Assembly: GCA_044360195.1 (NCBI GenBank)
Contig: JBIKKT010000011.1
Location: forward strand, 7,567-71,566
Direction of reading: 5' to 3'
Source of the DNA: Bdellovibrionota bacterium
GTDB taxonomy: Bacteria > Bdellovibrionota_C > UBA2361 > OMII01
Length of the DNA stretch: 64,000 bases
Below the pieces are notes generated by a model. It was not told where the DNA came from and made no database searches. It saw only the letters and a list, made by a program, of their open reading frames with translations. Every line of letters starts with the position of its first letter. Position 1 is the first letter of the stretch. This document shows, in pieces, positions 8,449 to 40,052 of this stretch. The translations under genes and the position numbers were made by a program.

Positions 8449-9417
8449 ATGAGAGTTGGCTACCTTGTGTTTCTGCTCTTGCTAGTAGCGAGTAGCCGTT
8501 ACGCGGCTGCGGATCTTCCGTGTGCGTACCTTGATGATTCCGGAACAGTGCAGCGGGTAGAGTCCCCAGCAAGAGTTATCCCTCGGCTGCGCTCGCGAGT
8601 TGTCTGTGTTGATAATCAGCCGACCAAGTTTGTAGCTCCCGAAGACGTTAAGCTTGAAGGCCCAACGCGCGAGTCCTCATTTGTTACTGACCTTGGTCCG
8701 ATGCAGGTGCGGTGGCCACGCAGTGTTGAGCAGTGTTTGCGAAAGAATCCGCAGCGGGCTGTTGCTGATGCTGCGTCTGCTGTTAATCGTGCCATCAAAA
8801 CGGCACGCTTTGCCTCTGAGGTTAAGACTGCTCGCAGCGAATGGTCTATGGTCTTCACTGATAAGAAGAGCGCGATGACGCAATTTCCGATGGTGCTCAG
8901 CTTGGGTGGGCATCCAGGATTTATGGTTCCACCGAGTAATATCTATATTATCGCTGACTACATCTCTCCTAACTGCGCAGGTGGTGAAGTGAGTGATGCA
9001 CTACTTACGCAGGTACTTCTGCATGAGATGGGGCATGTTGTGGAGTATCTGTTGCTTGGGTCACAGCAGATGGGCAGTGACCGTCAGCGTGCTGAGGGAT
9101 TCGCTGCTTGGTTTGAGATCTACTCTTCAGATTTTTCGTCAGCGATTCCGCGTGGGCAGGTGAGGGAGTATTATCGCGGGTTGGCAAAGAATGCGCTTGC
9201 TTCCGGCTCACGCAGCTTTGGCGGATCGGCCCAAGATTATGGTAGATCCGCATTTGATTTTGTCACTATCGTAGACCGTAGGGGTCTCTCTGGTTTGATG
9301 GAAGTTTATGCCCTGATGCGAAACGACGGACTCTCGTTTCAGGACGCACTCAATAGAAAGTTTCGCTGGACTCCAACGGTGCTCGAGAGGGAAGCCAAGG
9401 CAGTTATTGGAGAGTAG
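8449..9417 (+). CDS. Secreted putative zinc metallopeptidase with an HEXXH motif, family unassigned
   Basis: Signal peptide 'MRVGYLVFLLLLVASSRYAAA'. Single 'LLHEMGHVVEY' HEXXH motif, with 'AEGFAAWFE' about 25 aa downstream as a possible third ligand (gluzincin-like). Confidence 0.45.
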   Translation: MRVGYLVFLLLLVASSRYAAADLPCAYLDDSGTVQRVESPARVIPRLRSRVVCVDNQPTKFVAPEDVKLEGPTRESSFVTDLGPMQVRWPRSVEQCLRKNPQRAVADAASAVNRAIKTARFASEVKTARSEWSMVFTDKKSAMTQFPMVLSLGGHPGFMVPPSNIYIIADYISPNCAGGEVSDALLTQVLLHEMGHVVEYLLLGSQQMGSDRQRAEGFAAWFEIYSSDFSSAIPRGQVREYYRGLAKNALASGSRSFGGSAQDYGRSAFDFVTIVDRRGLSGLMEVYALMRNDGLSFQDALNRKFRWTPTVLEREAKAVIGE

Positions 9418-9511
9418 TTGGCTCTCAACAGCTACTAGGCAGAGCCTATCGCCTCTGAATTATGCCCTCCAAAGCGCCAAAATCAGAGCGTGTTATCTTC
9501 TCAAGACCGCC

Positions 9512-9539
9512 GGGAAACCCCCGTCCATGGGGGTTTCCC
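9512..9539 (+). terminator. Perfect 11-bp stem / 6-nt loop hairpin downstream of the HEXXH gene (putative intrinsic terminator, no U-tract)
   Basis: 'gggaaaccccc gtccat gggggtttccc' is a perfect inverted repeat located 95 bp after the stop at 9417. Confidence 0.4.
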
Positions 9540-9636
9540 AGCAACCCAAGTCGTAGATTCCACCCAAAATAGTCCAATACGAACTCTAGCCGCCATCTCG
9601 TGGGGTTAGATTTTATCCTGTGGTATTCTGGGTGTT

Positions 9637-12339
9637 ATGTCACAGGCTCAGCCGTCAGCTGTCATTGCATCGCTCATTCGCGCAATCGGTGAAGAGATAA
9701 AAGCTGTCGAGCGCTCGCGTCGGGAGTATAGGGTAACGCACGGCAAGCGGGTATCTGGAAGTGGAGCGCGCCAGCTCTATACGTTTAAAACTAAAGCTAA
9801 CCTGCGTGCCAAAGATGACACTCAGTGCTCTCTAACTTTTTCTGGGGTTAGCTATGCAGGAAACATTGCTTCCTCCAGCGATGGTTCTATTACCGTAGCA
9901 CTTACACAGGACGTGGGTGCTGTCATTCCCTCAGCGGATTTGTCTGTTGATGAGACGCAGCTTTTGAAAGAGTTGCGAGCTGCGCTCTATGCTCTTGGTC
10001 AGGACAAAGAGGATGCGGAGCAGGAGAAACAGAAAGCTCCCTGGAATGAGGGATTGGCTCTTCGTACCCTCGGTCAGCAGCAGCCTCGAAGGGTTGAGCG
10101 ATTATCGCTTCCTGCGTTACCCAACGATCTAACGGATGATCAGCGGCGTGCTATCGAAACTGTTTTTTCCCATGAGACGACTTTCCTCTGGGGCCCCCCG
10201 GGCACGGGGAAAACGCACACTCTTGGCGCCATGGCGCATGCCCTGTACAGCGCAGGTCAACGTATTCTTATCGTTTCGCACACAAATCGCGCGGTTGACG
10301 GGTTGGTGGAGGCGCTATGCAATCGGCTGACGGATAAGGGGGCTGAGCCGATGCCCGTTGATGCCGTAGTGCGCTTGGGACCGATAGCGCGCGAGTCGTT
10401 GCGGGAGCGATACGGGGCCGCTGTAGCGTTCGACGATATCATCCGTCGTATCGATGAAGAAGCGGAGAGTGTTGCGTCCTCGCTGTATCAAGAGCAGATG
10501 GTGTGTAAGCAAGAAATTGAGAGTCTCTCAAAGCTGCCGCCGATGTGGGAGGACCGCACGAGAGTATTAGATAAAATCCGAGAGCTGCAGCAACGCTTCT
10601 GTCGGCATACGACGGGTGTGAGGGGGTTTGTTCGTCGCGTTTTTGGCGAGTCAACGAGTCTTGCTCAACTGCTGCATGACATTCGTGTTGAAGTCACTGA
10701 GCAGGAGGCGCTCGTTACAGAACTCAATACGCAACTTGAGGGTATAGAAGAAGGTGTATGGGAGTCGCGCGCCGCAGAGCTCAATGAGCGTATTCGTGCT
10801 CTGCAGAGTGAGATAGATAAGGCTTTCGAACGTGCTCTCCATGCCAAAGAGTCGCTCATCGATGATGCTCAAGTGGTTGCGATGAGTACGACGCAGGCCT
10901 TCTTGCGGGCATCCACTCTACTTGATTTCGATGCTATCCTGATTGATGAGGCATCAATGGTTCCGCTGCCTGTGGCCTACTACTTGAGTGGTATGGTCTC
11001 AAGCAGGGTAGTTATCGGGGGCGACTTTCGACAACTTCCTCCCATTGCACACTCTAAGGATGAACTCGTGAGGGAGTGGTACGCAAAGGATATCTTCTTT
11101 GCGGCCGGCGTAGTTGATGATGTAAATGCAGGTAGAGCGCGCCCTAACCTCGCCAAGCTCACGAGCCAATTTAGGAGTCATTCAGACCTGTGTGAGTTGA
11201 TAAACGGTCGATTTTACGGGGGCGACCTCACCTCAAGCTTTACAGATTGCACCGGGCTCTCTTTTTCTCCTGAGTTGGAGTACCTGCGAGATAACCGGAT
11301 TATTCTAATCGACACCTCAGAGTATGCAGGTTCTGGACAGTTTGTAAGTAAGTCAAAATCAAACCTTATACATGCCATGATTATTCGCAGTCTGTGCGGT
11401 CAATTGCGTCCGCTATGGCAAGCAGATAATCCGCTGTCTCTTGGGGTAATCTCTCCGTACCGACCGCAGGCCGAGCTTATTAAAGACCTCTTGGTTGAGG
11501 GGGGTAGCGCTGATGTAGCCGTAGGCACGGTTCACCGTTTTCAGGGAGATGAGCGAGCCATCATGATCCTTGATCTTACCGAGAGCGAGCCACATTCCTT
11601 AGGCGGATTCTTTACTGCAAGCTCGTTGTCAGAGGAGGGGGCAAGGCTGTGGAATGTGGCGTTCAGTCGTGCGCAGCGCAATCTGATCGTGGTGGCAAAC
11701 CTTTCCTACTTTAAGAGCAAGTTAGCTCCTAAGCACGTGATGCGTGGAATTGTGCAAGACCTTGAGTCGCGCGCTTTAATTATGAAAGCGGATAAGTTTA
11801 TGACGCCCGCGCCGCATGTACCTGAGGTTGGCTTAGGTAACGTGATCTCGTTTGTAAGTCCGCCCCCGCAGTATTTTAGTGAGGTAGAGTTTTCAGCTGC
11901 ATTTGCCGCCGACATTAAGGAGGCGCGCTATGAGATTTTTATTGTGTCGGCGTTCATATCGGTGACGCGAGTGCGAGCGGTTAGGGATCTGCTTATTCAG
12001 CAGGCGAGGTTAGGGGTTGCTATAACTGTTGTAATCCCGCCGCTTGCCGAAAACGGCTCTATTGATGCTAAAAGCTACGAAAAAGCGGTGGGGATGCTTA
12101 AGGATATCGGCGCTACTGTCATAATCAAGCGATCGCTTCATGCGAAGCTCGTCTGCATCGACAGGGAGGTCGTGTGGACAGGGTCGCTTAACCCGCTTTC
12201 TTTTAGCGGCAGAAATACCGAAACTATGGTGCGTCACGTAAGCTCTGCAGCGTATGCTTCTGTGATGCAGCAATTTGCTTCTGAGGGTGCGTCAAGAAAG
12301 AGTTCAGCGTTTCTGCTTGTTAATAGCGCTCTTAAATAG
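9637..12339 (+). CDS. Superfamily-1 (Upf1/DNA2-like) helicase fused to a C-terminal phospholipase-D (HKD) nuclease domain; candidate single-protein defense/nucleic-acid surveillance factor
   Basis: Walker A 'WGPPGTGKTHTL', a long coiled insertion, Walker B 'IDEASMVP', motif III 'GGDFRQLPPI', 'TVHRFQGDERAIMILD', motif VI 'WNVAFSRAQRNLIVV'. The C-terminus carries 'SLHAKLVCIDREVVWTGSLNP' (HxK..D...GSxN HKD motif). The N-terminal ~170 aa have no recognizable motif. 900 aa. Confidence 0.75.
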   Translation: MSQAQPSAVIASLIRAIGEEIKAVERSRREYRVTHGKRVSGSGARQLYTFKTKANLRAKDDTQCSLTFSGVSYAGNIASSSDGSITVALTQDVGAVIPSADLSVDETQLLKELRAALYALGQDKEDAEQEKQKAPWNEGLALRTLGQQQPRRVERLSLPALPNDLTDDQRRAIETVFSHETTFLWGPPGTGKTHTLGAMAHALYSAGQRILIVSHTNRAVDGLVEALCNRLTDKGAEPMPVDAVVRLGPIARESLRERYGAAVAFDDIIRRIDEEAESVASSLYQEQMVCKQEIESLSKLPPMWEDRTRVLDKIRELQQRFCRHTTGVRGFVRRVFGESTSLAQLLHDIRVEVTEQEALVTELNTQLEGIEEGVWESRAAELNERIRALQSEIDKAFERALHAKESLIDDAQVVAMSTTQAFLRASTLLDFDAILIDEASMVPLPVAYYLSGMVSSRVVIGGDFRQLPPIAHSKDELVREWYAKDIFFAAGVVDDVNAGRARPNLAKLTSQFRSHSDLCELINGRFYGGDLTSSFTDCTGLSFSPELEYLRDNRIILIDTSEYAGSGQFVSKSKSNLIHAMIIRSLCGQLRPLWQADNPLSLGVISPYRPQAELIKDLLVEGGSADVAVGTVHRFQGDERAIMILDLTESEPHSLGGFFTASSLSEEGARLWNVAFSRAQRNLIVVANLSYFKSKLAPKHVMRGIVQDLESRALIMKADKFMTPAPHVPEVGLGNVISFVSPPPQYFSEVEFSAAFAADIKEARYEIFIVSAFISVTRVRAVRDLLIQQARLGVAITVVIPPLAENGSIDAKSYEKAVGMLKDIGATVIIKRSLHAKLVCIDREVVWTGSLNPLSFSGRNTETMVRHVSSAAYASVMQQFASEGASRKSSAFLLVNSALK

Positions 12340-12921
12340 GGCACCAAACGAATTTGGCTTTTCTTCCTCTGCTGCACCGGCCTGCCAGCTACGCTTTGAG
12401 CAGTCCCTATTGCACACACGACACCGCTCGTGTTCATCGCGTTCGGGGTGCCAAAAGGGGGAGAGAGAGAGTATTAGAGCCTCTTGCAGGGGCTCCTCTA
12501 GGTATACGTGTTCACCTTCGTATACTATGACTCCAGGGTCCTCTATCTCATCATTAGGAGCCGCCCGGTCACTCACTGTCTGGAGGACCCAGTCTATATA
12601 AGCTGACACCTCGTGGCTTACTGGGTCTGCGCAGGTTGAGCACTCCTGTTTACACATCCCACTGATGAGACCCTTTACCAGGATGCCACCGTGGGTGCGA
12701 GTGAGGGTAAGGTCTGCTATCGGAGCGGCTTCAAAGGCCATAGTTGAGCCGCTTTCGCCCGCTTTTAGTCGATTGTTGAGCTCATTCAGATCGATGGGGG
12801 CATCGATCTTCATGCCTGAAAATGGGATGGTTGTAACAGTTATTCTCATAGCGGCTTGGTGGTCTAAAAAGGCCCCAGTATTGTAGCTGATCGGCGTGAA
12901 ATAGGGTACTTTACAGACCAA
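12304..12921 (-). CDS. YceD/DUF177 family protein (large ribosomal subunit accumulation protein-like)
   Basis: C-terminal Cys cluster 'CxxC...CRVCNRDC' and the 'LQEALILSLSP' signature typical of DUF177. The start may be the internal 'MRITVTT'. It overlaps the helicase 3' end convergently by ~36 bp. Confidence 0.5.
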   Translation of the reverse strand: MVCKVPYFTPISYNTGAFLDHQAAMRITVTTIPFSGMKIDAPIDLNELNNRLKAGESGSTMAFEAAPIADLTLTRTHGGILVKGLISGMCKQECSTCADPVSHEVSAYIDWVLQTVSDRAAPNDEIEDPGVIVYEGEHVYLEEPLQEALILSLSPFWHPERDEHERCRVCNRDCSKRSWQAGAAEEEKPNSFGALFKSAINKQKR

Positions 12922-38150: not shown

Positions 38151-40052
38151 ATGCTTACGTCGCGCGAAGTTCGGGAGAGATACTTAAAGTTTTGGACCGA
38201 GGCTCCTCGCTCATGCGGAGTCGTGCCGAACATGTCGCTTGTCCCTAATGTGGACTCAACGCTCCTTTTTGTGAACTCAGGAATGTTTCCGCTGGTGCCC
38301 TACCTAGGTGGCCAGCCGCATCCGCTCGGTAAACGTCTCTGTAACATTCAGCGCTGCTTACGCACCAACTATGATGACATGCTTGAGGTCGGAGATAACC
38401 GACACACGTTGATGTTCGAGATGATCGGCGACTGGTCGCTTGGAGATTTCACTAAAGAGCAACAGATCCCCTGGATCATGGAGCTATGGGTCAAAGTGCT
38501 CGGGATGGATCCATCGCGACTCTACGTTTCGGTTTTTGCTGGAGATGGAACCGCACCACGAGATGACCTAGCGATTGAAACCTGGAAGAAAGTCTTTCGC
38601 TCGTACGGTGTAGAGGCCGAGTTCTCACCCGATGTACACGCTGTGCCTTCAACCCTTGAGGAAGGTAAGACGTGGAAGTATCGCATCTTCCCGTATGGAA
38701 AGGGGAAGAACTGGTGGCAACGCGCAGAGGCACCAGGAGAGTTGGGTGGTCCAACCTCTGAGATGTTCTACGACATGGGGGTAGTTGAGCGACCCCAAGA
38801 TAAGTACCACATTAACGACGACTCGGGTCGATTTATCGAGATCGGTAACAATGTATTTATGGAGTACCGACTCTCAAACGAGCTTACATGGCAGCCGCTT
38901 GAGCAGAAGAATATCGATTTCGGTGGCGGATTTGAGCGTGTGTGCATGATCGTGCAGAACAAGCTCGATATCTTCGAGAGTGATATTTATTCGCCGATTA
39001 TTGATCGTGTTGCTGCAATCTCGGGTCGTCAGTACAAGAGCGATGGAGCCGAAAATAGCGACACGGCAGCTTTCCGAGTGATTGCAGACCACGGGCGCGC
39101 TGCCACGTTTATCCTTGCTGATGGCGTTTCTCCGTCGAATAAGGATCAAGGGTATATCCTGCGTCGTTTCATTCGTCGTCTTGCGCGCTTCGGTCGTAAA
39201 CTTGGGATAGAGAAAGAGTTCACTAAAGAGGTCGCTGAAGCGGTCATTCAAACCCTAGCGCATGCCTACCCGCATCTTGAAGAGAATAGAGATGTAATCC
39301 TTCAGAAGATTCACGACGAAGAGGTTGCGTTCAATCAAACCCTTTCAAAGGGTCTGCGTGAGCTTTCAAAGATTCAGGCGCAGCTTGAGCCTGGTGCTAC
39401 CATCTCGGGTGAGCAGGCTTTCTTTATTTACGAGACATACGGATTTCCGCTTGAGTTGACTCTTGATGAGTTAAAGATCACCGATGATCGAGCGAAAATT
39501 ATCTCGACGCAGTTCGCCGAGGCCGAGAAGAAACACCGTGAGTTGTCACGCGCTGGCGCTGAGTCAAAATTTAAGGGTGGCTTAGCGGATCAATCGCGGG
39601 AGACTACTAAGCTGCACACGGCGCATCACCTTCTTCTGGCAGCGATGCAGAAGTTGGTTGATCCAAATATCAAGCAGAAGGGAAGTAACATAACCGCCGA
39701 GCGTTTGCGTATGGATTTTAATCTAGACCGCAAGATGACTCCGGAAGAGATCGCCAAGGTTGAAGAGCTCGTTAATCAGCAGATGAGCGAGAACCTGCCC
39801 GTGCTGCGAGTCGAGATGCCGCTACAGGAGGCTGAAGCCCTTGGAGCGCAGATGGAGTTCGGCGCAAAGTATCCTGATTTAGTAAGCGTTTATTTTATTG
39901 GCGATCAAAAGAACTGGTTCTCTGCTGAGTTCTGTGGCGGGCCACACGTTGCTGCAACATCTGAGATCGCCGAAGGTTCAAAGCGCTTTAAGATTCAGAA
40001 GCAAGAGAACGTGGCAGCGGGCATTAAGCGCGTGAAGGCTGCCTTGGTGTAG
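38151..40052 (+). CDS. alaS: Alanine--tRNA ligase, short form: catalytic, tRNA-recognition and editing domains present, C-Ala domain apparently absent
   Basis: 'SLVPNVDSTLLFVNSGM' and 'FEMIGDWSLGDF' class II motifs. Editing-domain Zn ligands 'HTAHHLL' and 'CGGPHV'. The ORF ends right after the editing domain at 633 aa. Confidence 0.85.
   Translation: MLTSREVRERYLKFWTEAPRSCGVVPNMSLVPNVDSTLLFVNSGMFPLVPYLGGQPHPLGKRLCNIQRCLRTNYDDMLEVGDNRHTLMFEMIGDWSLGDFTKEQQIPWIMELWVKVLGMDPSRLYVSVFAGDGTAPRDDLAIETWKKVFRSYGVEAEFSPDVHAVPSTLEEGKTWKYRIFPYGKGKNWWQRAEAPGELGGPTSEMFYDMGVVERPQDKYHINDDSGRFIEIGNNVFMEYRLSNELTWQPLEQKNIDFGGGFERVCMIVQNKLDIFESDIYSPIIDRVAAISGRQYKSDGAENSDTAAFRVIADHGRAATFILADGVSPSNKDQGYILRRFIRRLARFGRKLGIEKEFTKEVAEAVIQTLAHAYPHLEENRDVILQKIHDEEVAFNQTLSKGLRELSKIQAQLEPGATISGEQAFFIYETYGFPLELTLDELKITDDRAKIISTQFAEAEKKHRELSRAGAESKFKGGLADQSRETTKLHTAHHLLLAAMQKLVDPNIKQKGSNITAERLRMDFNLDRKMTPEEIAKVEELVNQQMSENLPVLRVEMPLQEAEALGAQMEFGAKYPDLVSVYFIGDQKNWFSAEFCGGPHVAATSEIAEGSKRFKIQKQENVAAGIKRVKAALV

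Follow-up and report, generated by a model that had tools for sequence, protein, structure and literature searches.

A compact Upf1-like helicase fused to a phospholipase D-type nuclease in a Bdellovibrionota bacterium resembles type II Mokosh in layout

We analysed a stretch of 64,000 nucleotides (nt) from a Bdellovibrionota bacterium (GenBank assembly GCA_044360195.1, contig JBIKKT010000011.1, positions 7,567 to 71,566 of the forward strand), which we call the window, and in it a gene for a protein of 900 amino acids (aa). The gene product is an Upf1-like superfamily 1B (SF1B) helicase fused in one chain to a phospholipase D (PLD) nuclease with a single HKD motif. Judged by its sequence, this helicase–PLD protein is a type II Mokosh in layout and lies outside the MkoC sequence family proper; we class it as a compact representative of a helicase–PLD lineage distinct from MkoC. 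We propose, with what we would call an even chance of being right, that it is a stand-alone, single-chain helicase-nuclease with a Mokosh-like role, in which foreign or aberrant nucleic acid is surveyed and degraded, and a role in defence is plausible.

Domain architecture and predicted structure

An initial annotation, made from the letters of the DNA and a list of its open reading frames (ORFs), had described one 900-aa ORF with a full set of helicase motifs and a C-terminal HKD motif. The ORF list and the motif coordinates bear this out. Walker A (GPPGTGKT) lies at aa 186–193, DEAS at aa 437–440, GDFRQLPP at aa 462–469, TVHRFQGDE at aa 631–639 and NVAFSRAQRNLIV at aa 673–685, and the nuclease motifs HAKLVCID and GSLN occupy aa 835–842 and aa 849–852. 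The Pfam search that the annotation had suggested gave three matches above the cut-offs: AAA_11 at aa 165–474 (99.5 bits), AAA_12 at aa 506–688 (85.4 bits) and PLDc_2 at aa 758–881 (47.6 bits, the cut-off being 27). The N-terminal domain matched no Pfam family, and no kinase domain was found by Pfam anywhere in the protein.

A model was built with AlphaFold2 (AF2) from an alignment of 38 family members, with a mean predicted local distance difference test score (pLDDT) of 85.4. At the N-terminus it has a helix (aa 6–25), a six-stranded barrel (aa 29–104) and a second helix (aa 107–126). The first RecA domain, RecA1, is interrupted by an insertion of four long helices (aa 265–298, 300–331, 340–367 and 374–410), and a disordered linker (approximately aa 722–744) leads to an alpha/beta domain at aa 745–882. 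When the model was compared with the PDB by Foldseek, IGHMBP2 was the top match (E 2e-31, TMt 0.71), followed by Dna2, SETX, UPF1, Aquarius and ZNFX1. The N-terminal region, which the annotation had left unassigned and had counted as an extra domain relative to Mokosh, is the stalk and 1B beta-barrel module of Upf1-like helicases, and in relatives of the protein the MkoA profile extends over this region too. The features that define an Upf1-like SF1B helicase are all present, namely two RecA domains with motifs I–VI, a 1B barrel carried by stalk helices and, within RecA1, a 1C insertion.

Similarly, the prediction of a C-terminal PLD nuclease was upheld. A profile of the PLD domains with an intact HKD motif matched Zucchini (1.1e-7), NucT and Nuc among the PDB sequences, and the domain has a PLD fold like that of Nuc, NucT and Zucchini, in which the HKD motif is intact; HxKx4D and GSxN, as expected of a single-HKD PLD domain, are both there. 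We also considered a secreted predatory nuclease and rejected it, the N-terminus being read as a hydrophilic stalk helix without a signal peptide.

Relation to Mokosh

In Mokosh type II a single gene encodes an Upf1-like (COG1112) helicase N-terminal to a PLD nuclease, and for defence an ATP-binding site and a PLD active site are each required (10.1101/2022.05.11.491447). The helicase–PLD protein has the same single-gene arrangement, AAA_11 and AAA_12 being followed by PLDc_2 with the corresponding folds, and by sequence both sites are intact (GPPGTGKT and DEAS; HAKLVCID and GSLN). The Mokosh-like composition proposed by the annotation is therefore confirmed, but the order of helicase and PLD, which it had taken for a departure from Mokosh, is the canonical one of type II.

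The best PADLOC matches of the protein were MkoA (5e-59) and MkoC (1.5e-42), MkoA scoring above MkoC. The match to the MkoA profile was limited to the helicase part (profile positions 613–1098 of 1112). Against the MkoC profile the protein reached 143.8 bits, and the best stretch placed aa 569–875 on profile positions 823–1118 of 1136. The profile was calibrated with YjhR of E. coli K-12, a 338-aa remnant of a fused Mokosh (10.1101/2022.12.12.520048): this fragment scored 463.7 bits, three times the score of our whole 900-aa protein. Residues 592–873 are colinear with E. coli YjhR across motifs V/VI, the linker and the HKD motif (24% identity, E 2e-11). When aa 561–900 were compared with 95 YjhR-like proteins, the median was 58.5 bits at 25% identity, whereas YjhR itself gave a median of 305 bits at 47%; against relatives with a Zn ribbon the same segment gave 154.5 bits and 33%. 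The E. coli yjhR loci were all truncated and the search for YjhR homologs gave only cluster representatives of at most 588 aa; the N-terminal half of MkoC was compared via the PADLOC profile only.

The E. coli Mokosh II protein has a mass of ~132 kDa and is a monomer in solution, and in one phage panel it protected against a single-stranded DNA (ssDNA) phage only (10.1101/2025.07.10.664194). Three properties of type II were not found in the helicase–PLD protein: a profile score of the MkoC family, the size and N-terminal region of MkoC, and enrichment beside defence systems. Nor does it fit Mokosh type I (MkoA plus MkoB), as it has no Ser/Thr kinase domain and its PLD domain is fused instead of being encoded by a separate gene.

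A small family of about 890 residues

A search of 5.8 billion proteins gave a tight set of 879–954 aa with 95–100% query coverage and 33–89% identity; these are all unnamed proteins, known from metagenomes only, and have no Zn ribbon. Below them came many proteins of 930–1250 aa with 27–32% identity. Among 1.84 billion representatives at 50% identity, the ~890-aa family comprised ~11 full-length clusters (900–1316 bits), beyond which the score fell to 715 bits or less, except for two family fragments in between, and the rest of the top 150 representatives were nearly all larger helicase–PLD proteins. It is a small family, probably from uncultured Bdellovibrionota-like bacteria. In a neighbour-joining tree, calculated without support values, it formed one group against the larger relatives with an intact HKD motif, and it is sister to the widespread helicase–PLD–Zn-ribbon proteins. 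No DNA match to the gene was found in E. coli genomes. A single-protein scan of GTDB gave nothing, and a scan with the alignment gave, among the matches listed, only relatives of at most 31% identity over substantial alignments.

The nuclease site and selection

In the 38-member alignment all helicase motifs are invariant, including the run from W185 to T193. The H and K of the HKD motif and the N of GSxN are kept only in the helicase–PLD protein itself, P0001–P0007 and P0009. Of the top 120 matches ~49 belong to the family, and ~40 of these have lost H and K; the helicase motifs are kept in all, and D842, W847, P853 and R866 are still invariant in the members without H and K (HK-less members). 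For one of the latter, P0017, PLDc_2 still gives 26.9 bits. According to the same tree, the loss occurred on at least two branches, P0008/P0010 and a large HK-less clade.

The mean identity of the PLD domain is 61% in the HKD-intact members and 37% in the HK-less ones, compared with 59–68% for the helicase core; within the HKD-intact clade the PLD domain (61%) and the helicase core (68%) are nearly equally conserved. The helical insertion is among the least conserved parts, with a mean within-clade identity of 38–42%, and only the 24-aa linker is lower.

The ratio of nonsynonymous to synonymous substitution rates (dN/dS) was determined against the relative in L004, which is 89% identical. It was 0.11 for the whole gene, 0.066 for the PLD domain, the most constrained segment, and 0.24 for the linker, the highest value of any segment bar the C-terminal tail. 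This pattern of constraint marks the gene as clearly functional, with a nuclease that looks functional too.

Codons ~271–450 (nt 10447–10986) showed a dS of 0.13 against L004, 5–8 times below the rest of the gene (0.48–0.80), and a stretch of 90 nt in this part (nt 10807–10896) is identical in the two genomes. For the flanking genes dS was 1.03 (lon) and 0.70 (the gene of 322 aa upstream). No alternative ORF was found in the low-dS tract and RNA structure is unsupported as the cause (fold z-score +1.37); the segment has the appearance of a tract that recombined recently within the gene.

A variable site and a resident locus

A scan for close relatives of Lon recovered the syntenic locus L089. 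The interval between the 322-aa gene and yceD differs among related genomes (Table 1), and in the window it holds the helicase–PLD gene alone. In L004 (Lon 96%, helicase 89% identical) the same site has in addition a methyltransferase and a gene of 504–568 aa with no known function. In L089 (Lon 77%) lon, the 322-aa gene, yceD, ssb, DUF445 and SDR genes are kept and a GINT1_N-like gene replaces the helicase, and in L086 (Lon 81%) there is no helicase within 1.7 kb after the 322-aa homolog and no long ORF in the interval. The presence or absence of the gene and the insertions in these three relatives therefore show that the site is variable and the gene accessory-like there.

Relatives of ~50% identity lie each in a different context, among glycosyltransferases, DUF2298/PMT genes, RHS proteins or an AbiEii pair. 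In the Pfam contexts of 12 loci the conflict-type genes were only one AbiEii pair and one RHS pair. The AbiEii pair is found 2.5 kb downstream of the HKD-intact P0007 (L170:6081–7090) and the two RHS/YD-repeat proteins directly downstream of the HKD-intact P0004 (L166:4907–12015), all assigned by Pfam; none of these proteins reached 1e-5 in PADLOC.

Another group of members occupies a constant place on the chromosome, which we call resident. P0008, P0009, P0017, P0036, P0047 and P0029 all adjoin a FabH-like gene and an S-adenosylmethionine (SAM) methyltransferase gene; RadC is near all of them except P0047, whose contig ends at MetH, and RmuC, UvrD, MetH or MlaEFD are often near. Of the two sisters among them, P0009 has an intact HKD motif and P0008 a decayed one. 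Between the resident genomes FabH is 68–91% identical, RadC 68–84% and the helicase 37–58%, and the nearest pairs of genomes are the same for all three proteins. The matching pairs together with the lower identity of the helicase point to vertical inheritance with an evolution much faster than that of the flanks, the divergence of the helicase being 3–5 times theirs.

Neighbourhood in the window

The surroundings of the gene are ordinary chromosome, with pyrG, alaS, M16 peptidases and mltA also present and an even GC content throughout. The best named relatives of the PyrG protein, ~70% identical, come from metagenome-assembled genomes of Bdellovibrionales or "Deltaproteobacteria", which tentatively points to an uncultured Bdellovibrionota-like bacterium. 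Among the neighbours named by the initial annotation, lon (TIGR00763, 922 bits), yceD (Pfam) and ssb (TIGR00621) were identified correctly. The secreted peptidase of that annotation is the 322-aa protein (nt 8449–9417), which has a hydrophobic N-terminus and a HEMGH motif at residue 192 and matches no Pfam, NCBIfam or PADLOC family; "secreted peptidase" is accordingly a reading of these two features. Its gene adjoins lon in all related contigs, and it may represent an undescribed family of secreted metallopeptidases. On the other side, the 3' ends of yceD and the helicase–PLD gene overlap by 36 nt (12304–12339); yceD is one boundary of the variable site and stands outside the system.

A hairpin midway in the upstream spacer possibly marks the end of the upstream transcription unit. 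No T-tract follows it and the terminator scan made no call there; the promoter and terminator scan gave nothing above chance, and no Rfam RNA was found in the window. A FabH-like gene 7 kb downstream was considered as a mark of the resident neighbourhood and rejected, being 23–27% identical to FabH of the resident loci. Elsewhere in the window, the alaS ORF (38151–40052) encodes only 633 aa (tRNA-synt_2c plus tRNA_SAD) before the convergent mltA, and appears to be without the usual C-terminal part of bacterial alanyl-tRNA synthetases.

Table 1. Features of the helicase–PLD gene, its surroundings and the loci compared (positions in the window unless a locus is given)
Feature	Position (nt)	Strand	Residues	Remarks
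Helicase–PLD gene	9637..12339	+	900 aa + stop	Complete coding sequence, single ATG ORF; ORF list and translation
Stalk helix, six-stranded 1B beta-barrel (aa 29–104), second stalk helix	9637..10131	+	aa 1–165	
RecA1, first part	10132..10392	+	aa 166–252	With Walker A (nt 10192–10215) and motif Ia; motif coordinates
Long helical (coiled-coil-like) insertion	10393..10866	+	aa 253–410	Position of Upf1 domain 1C; AF2 helices
Remainder of RecA1, and RecA2	10867..11796	+	aa 411–720	Walker B DEAS (nt 10945–10956), motif III (nt 11020–11043)
Motif V of RecA2	11527–11553	+		
Motif VI of RecA2	11653–11691	+		
Flexible helicase-to-PLD linker	11797..11868	+	aa 721–744	pLDDT <50 for aa 726–739
PLD-family nuclease domain	11869..12282	+	aa 745–882	With HxKx4D (nt 12139–12162) and GSxN (nt 12181–12192)
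Hairpin GGAAACCCCC-GTCCAT-GGGGGTTTCC	9513..9540	+		Perfect, 10 bp, GC-rich; midway in the 219-nt spacer upstream; sequence reading
yceD-family gene	12304..12921	-		Convergent; Pfam YceD; gene callers give 181 aa
Variable interval, window	9418–12303			Between the 322-aa gene and yceD
Variable interval, L004	L004:7200–10000			
Variable interval, L089	L089:13430–14445			
Variable interval, L086	L086:13210–14932			
Resident loci				L007 (P0008), L083 (P0036), L084 (P0017), L168 (P0029), L169 (P0009)

Discussion

By analogy with Upf1, IGHMBP2, SETX and Dna2, the SF1B motor with its 1B barrel would bind single-stranded RNA or DNA and move on it in the 5'→3' direction at the expense of ATP. The flexible linker would tether this motor to the Nuc/NucT/Zucchini-type domain with its one HKD motif. 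In single-HKD domains of this family an active site arises only by the pairing of two copies, and with one HKD motif per chain cleavage would be expected to need two molecules that meet on one substrate. The cleavage itself would be independent of metal and proceed via a phospho-histidine intermediate, as in the family at large. Candidate targets would be RNA, ssDNA or RNA/DNA intermediates of phages or other mobile elements.

Several observations weigh against a Mokosh-like defence function. On the profile of MkoC the protein scores weakly and aligns with the C-terminal part only. None of 18 neighbours in the window (ORFs between 109 and 23060) was matched by PADLOC, in agreement with the initial annotation, which had seen no defence island here, and none of 10 neighbours of other HKD-intact members was matched either. 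Full-length relatives were found on none of 72,556 plasmids and 50,697 phage records. Most of the family is without the catalytic His, Lys and Asn, so that at the level of the family the nuclease is dispensable. The sister branches are inherited vertically at the conserved FabH/RadC site, like a resident chromosomal gene.

These observations keep alive a second explanation, a housekeeping enzyme of nucleic-acid processing that is inherited vertically in the lineage and has nothing to do with phage defence, for example in RNA decay or quality control, removal of R-loops, or Dna2-like processing of ends or flaps. We regard it as a genuine possibility of lesser weight. It owes its standing to the lack of any signal of a defence island and to the resident, nuclease-dead sister branches: six members adjoin the FabH-like gene, the SAM methyltransferase and RadC (in P0047 the contig ends at MetH), and their relationships mirror those of the flanking FabH. 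The strong purifying selection, the absence of plasmid and phage copies from the records searched and the cellular RNA- and DNA-processing helicases among the nearest solved structures agree with it too. A classical housekeeping gene is nevertheless disfavoured by its patchy occurrence, by the very small size of the family (1.84 billion representatives gave only ~11 clusters at 50% identity) and by the fast evolution (37–58% identity in resident copies against 68–91% in the flanks), and the catalytic residues are lost in most members. The annotation had held that conserved core synteny of the orthologs would speak against its proposal; such synteny was seen in the sister branches, but the branch in the window lies elsewhere than beside FabH and RadC, and a related genome has no copy of it at the corresponding site. 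It had also left the choice between an unreported variant and a housekeeping enzyme. The protein falls outside the MkoC family, and of defence and housekeeping we rate the former as the likelier.

The losses in the family would also be understandable if the protein were a helicase that does not cleave, a sensor, remodeller or scaffold whose PLD domain merely bound a partner or substrate or made dimers. The HK-less relatives would be its model: the helicase motifs and D842, W847, P853 and R866 persist in them, and P0017 is still matched by PLDc_2. For the protein in the window this is improbable: H835, K837, D842 and GSxN are intact in it and in its clade, no other segment is as strongly constrained as the PLD domain, and the identity of this domain is 61% compared with 37% in the HK-less members. 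That the gene is simply a canonical MkoC, which standard tools would annotate as such, is unlikely. The single gene, the domain order, the PADLOC hit and the alignment with YjhR would fit, but a short YjhR fragment outscores the entire protein on the MkoC profile, the MkoA profile outscores that of MkoC, aa 561–900 fall far below the level at which YjhR matches its own family, and 900 aa stand against the ~132 kDa of E. coli Mokosh II. Membership of a multi-gene system with the 322-aa HEMGH protein, yceD or ssb has very little to recommend it, physical adjacency and the convergent overlap with yceD apart. In L089 the neighbours are kept together in a locus that has no helicase, none of them is beside it at any other locus, and a hairpin-bearing spacer of 219 nt separates it from the upstream gene. 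An operon with the neighbours was rejected on the same grounds, as they persist without the helicase.

Returning to the Mokosh-like helicase-nuclease, we tentatively suggest that the ~890-aa family records the domestication of such an enzyme, which in one bacterial lineage became fixed beside FabH, RadC, RmuC and UvrD, the gene in the window being a relocated, nuclease-competent branch. The decay of the nuclease residues on at least two occasions, with the helicase motifs invariant, suggests a helicase-only function independent of the nuclease, perhaps sensing or the surveillance of RNA. If this were true, the family would offer a natural pair of active and dead enzymes for assessing the part played by the PLD domain in systems of the Mokosh type. 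To us the most interesting by-product of the analysis is that, at a conserved locus, relatives that are otherwise intact have lost the nuclease site repeatedly. Intact and dead nucleases in otherwise colinear relatives could show whether Upf1-like helicase–PLD fusions always act by cleavage, and the contrast could also show how helicase–PLD genes shift between defence-like and resident chromosomal roles. To our knowledge, Mokosh is common and its mechanism is still unexplained; a minimal enzyme of 900 aa from a separate lineage could ease biochemical and structural work. Should the defence role fail, the family would be a lineage-specific bacterial counterpart of the RNA surveillance helicases of the Upf1/Sen1 type.

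Compared with known systems, the helicase is 17–24% identical to the Upf1-like SF1B helicases (Upf1, IGHMBP2, SETX/Sen1, Dna2, ZNFX1), and its insertion at the position of 1C is larger, with ~160 aa of long helices. Dna2 has an N-terminal nuclease of the PD-(D/E)xK type, whereas the nuclease here is a C-terminal PLD domain. Nuc, NucT, Zucchini/PLD6 and BfiI are small stand-alone or otherwise fused dimers, whereas this PLD domain is tethered to a helicase. SauUSI, an ATP-dependent type IV restriction enzyme (PDB 7clg), has an N-terminal nuclease, an SF2 motor and a domain that reads modifications. In animals, too, an Upf1-like helicase goes together with a PLD nuclease of the Zucchini type, namely MOV10L1 with Zucchini/PLD6 in piRNA biogenesis, although these are two separate eukaryotic proteins and the likeness is one of composition only, with no sign of direct descent; a link between MOV10L1/Zucchini and Mokosh was proposed earlier (10.1101/2022.12.12.520048).

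The nearest outgroup is formed by the Zn_ribbon_Top1 helicase–PLD proteins of many phyla (930–1380 aa; e.g. P0070, an "AAA domain-containing protein" of Thioalkalivibrio), which are 28–33% identical over nearly the full length and have the barrel, the helical insertion, the helicase and an HKD-intact PLD in common with the ~890-aa family. In these the order is helicase, PLDc_2 and a C-terminal topoisomerase-type Zn ribbon, often with an extra N-terminal extension of ~150 aa; the ~890-aa family has neither the ribbon nor the extension. With Mokosh type II our protein shares the single polypeptide of a COG1112 helicase and a C-terminal single-HKD PLD domain, with the Walker and HKD motifs intact. 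It differs from MkoC in its length (900 against ~1150 aa), in a best-scoring stretch that leaves at least the first half of the profile of MkoC unmatched, and in an identity of ~25% with a profile score about three-fold lower than that of a true MkoC fragment. Unlike type II Mokosh, its gene was not found here in a defence island or on the plasmids and phages searched.

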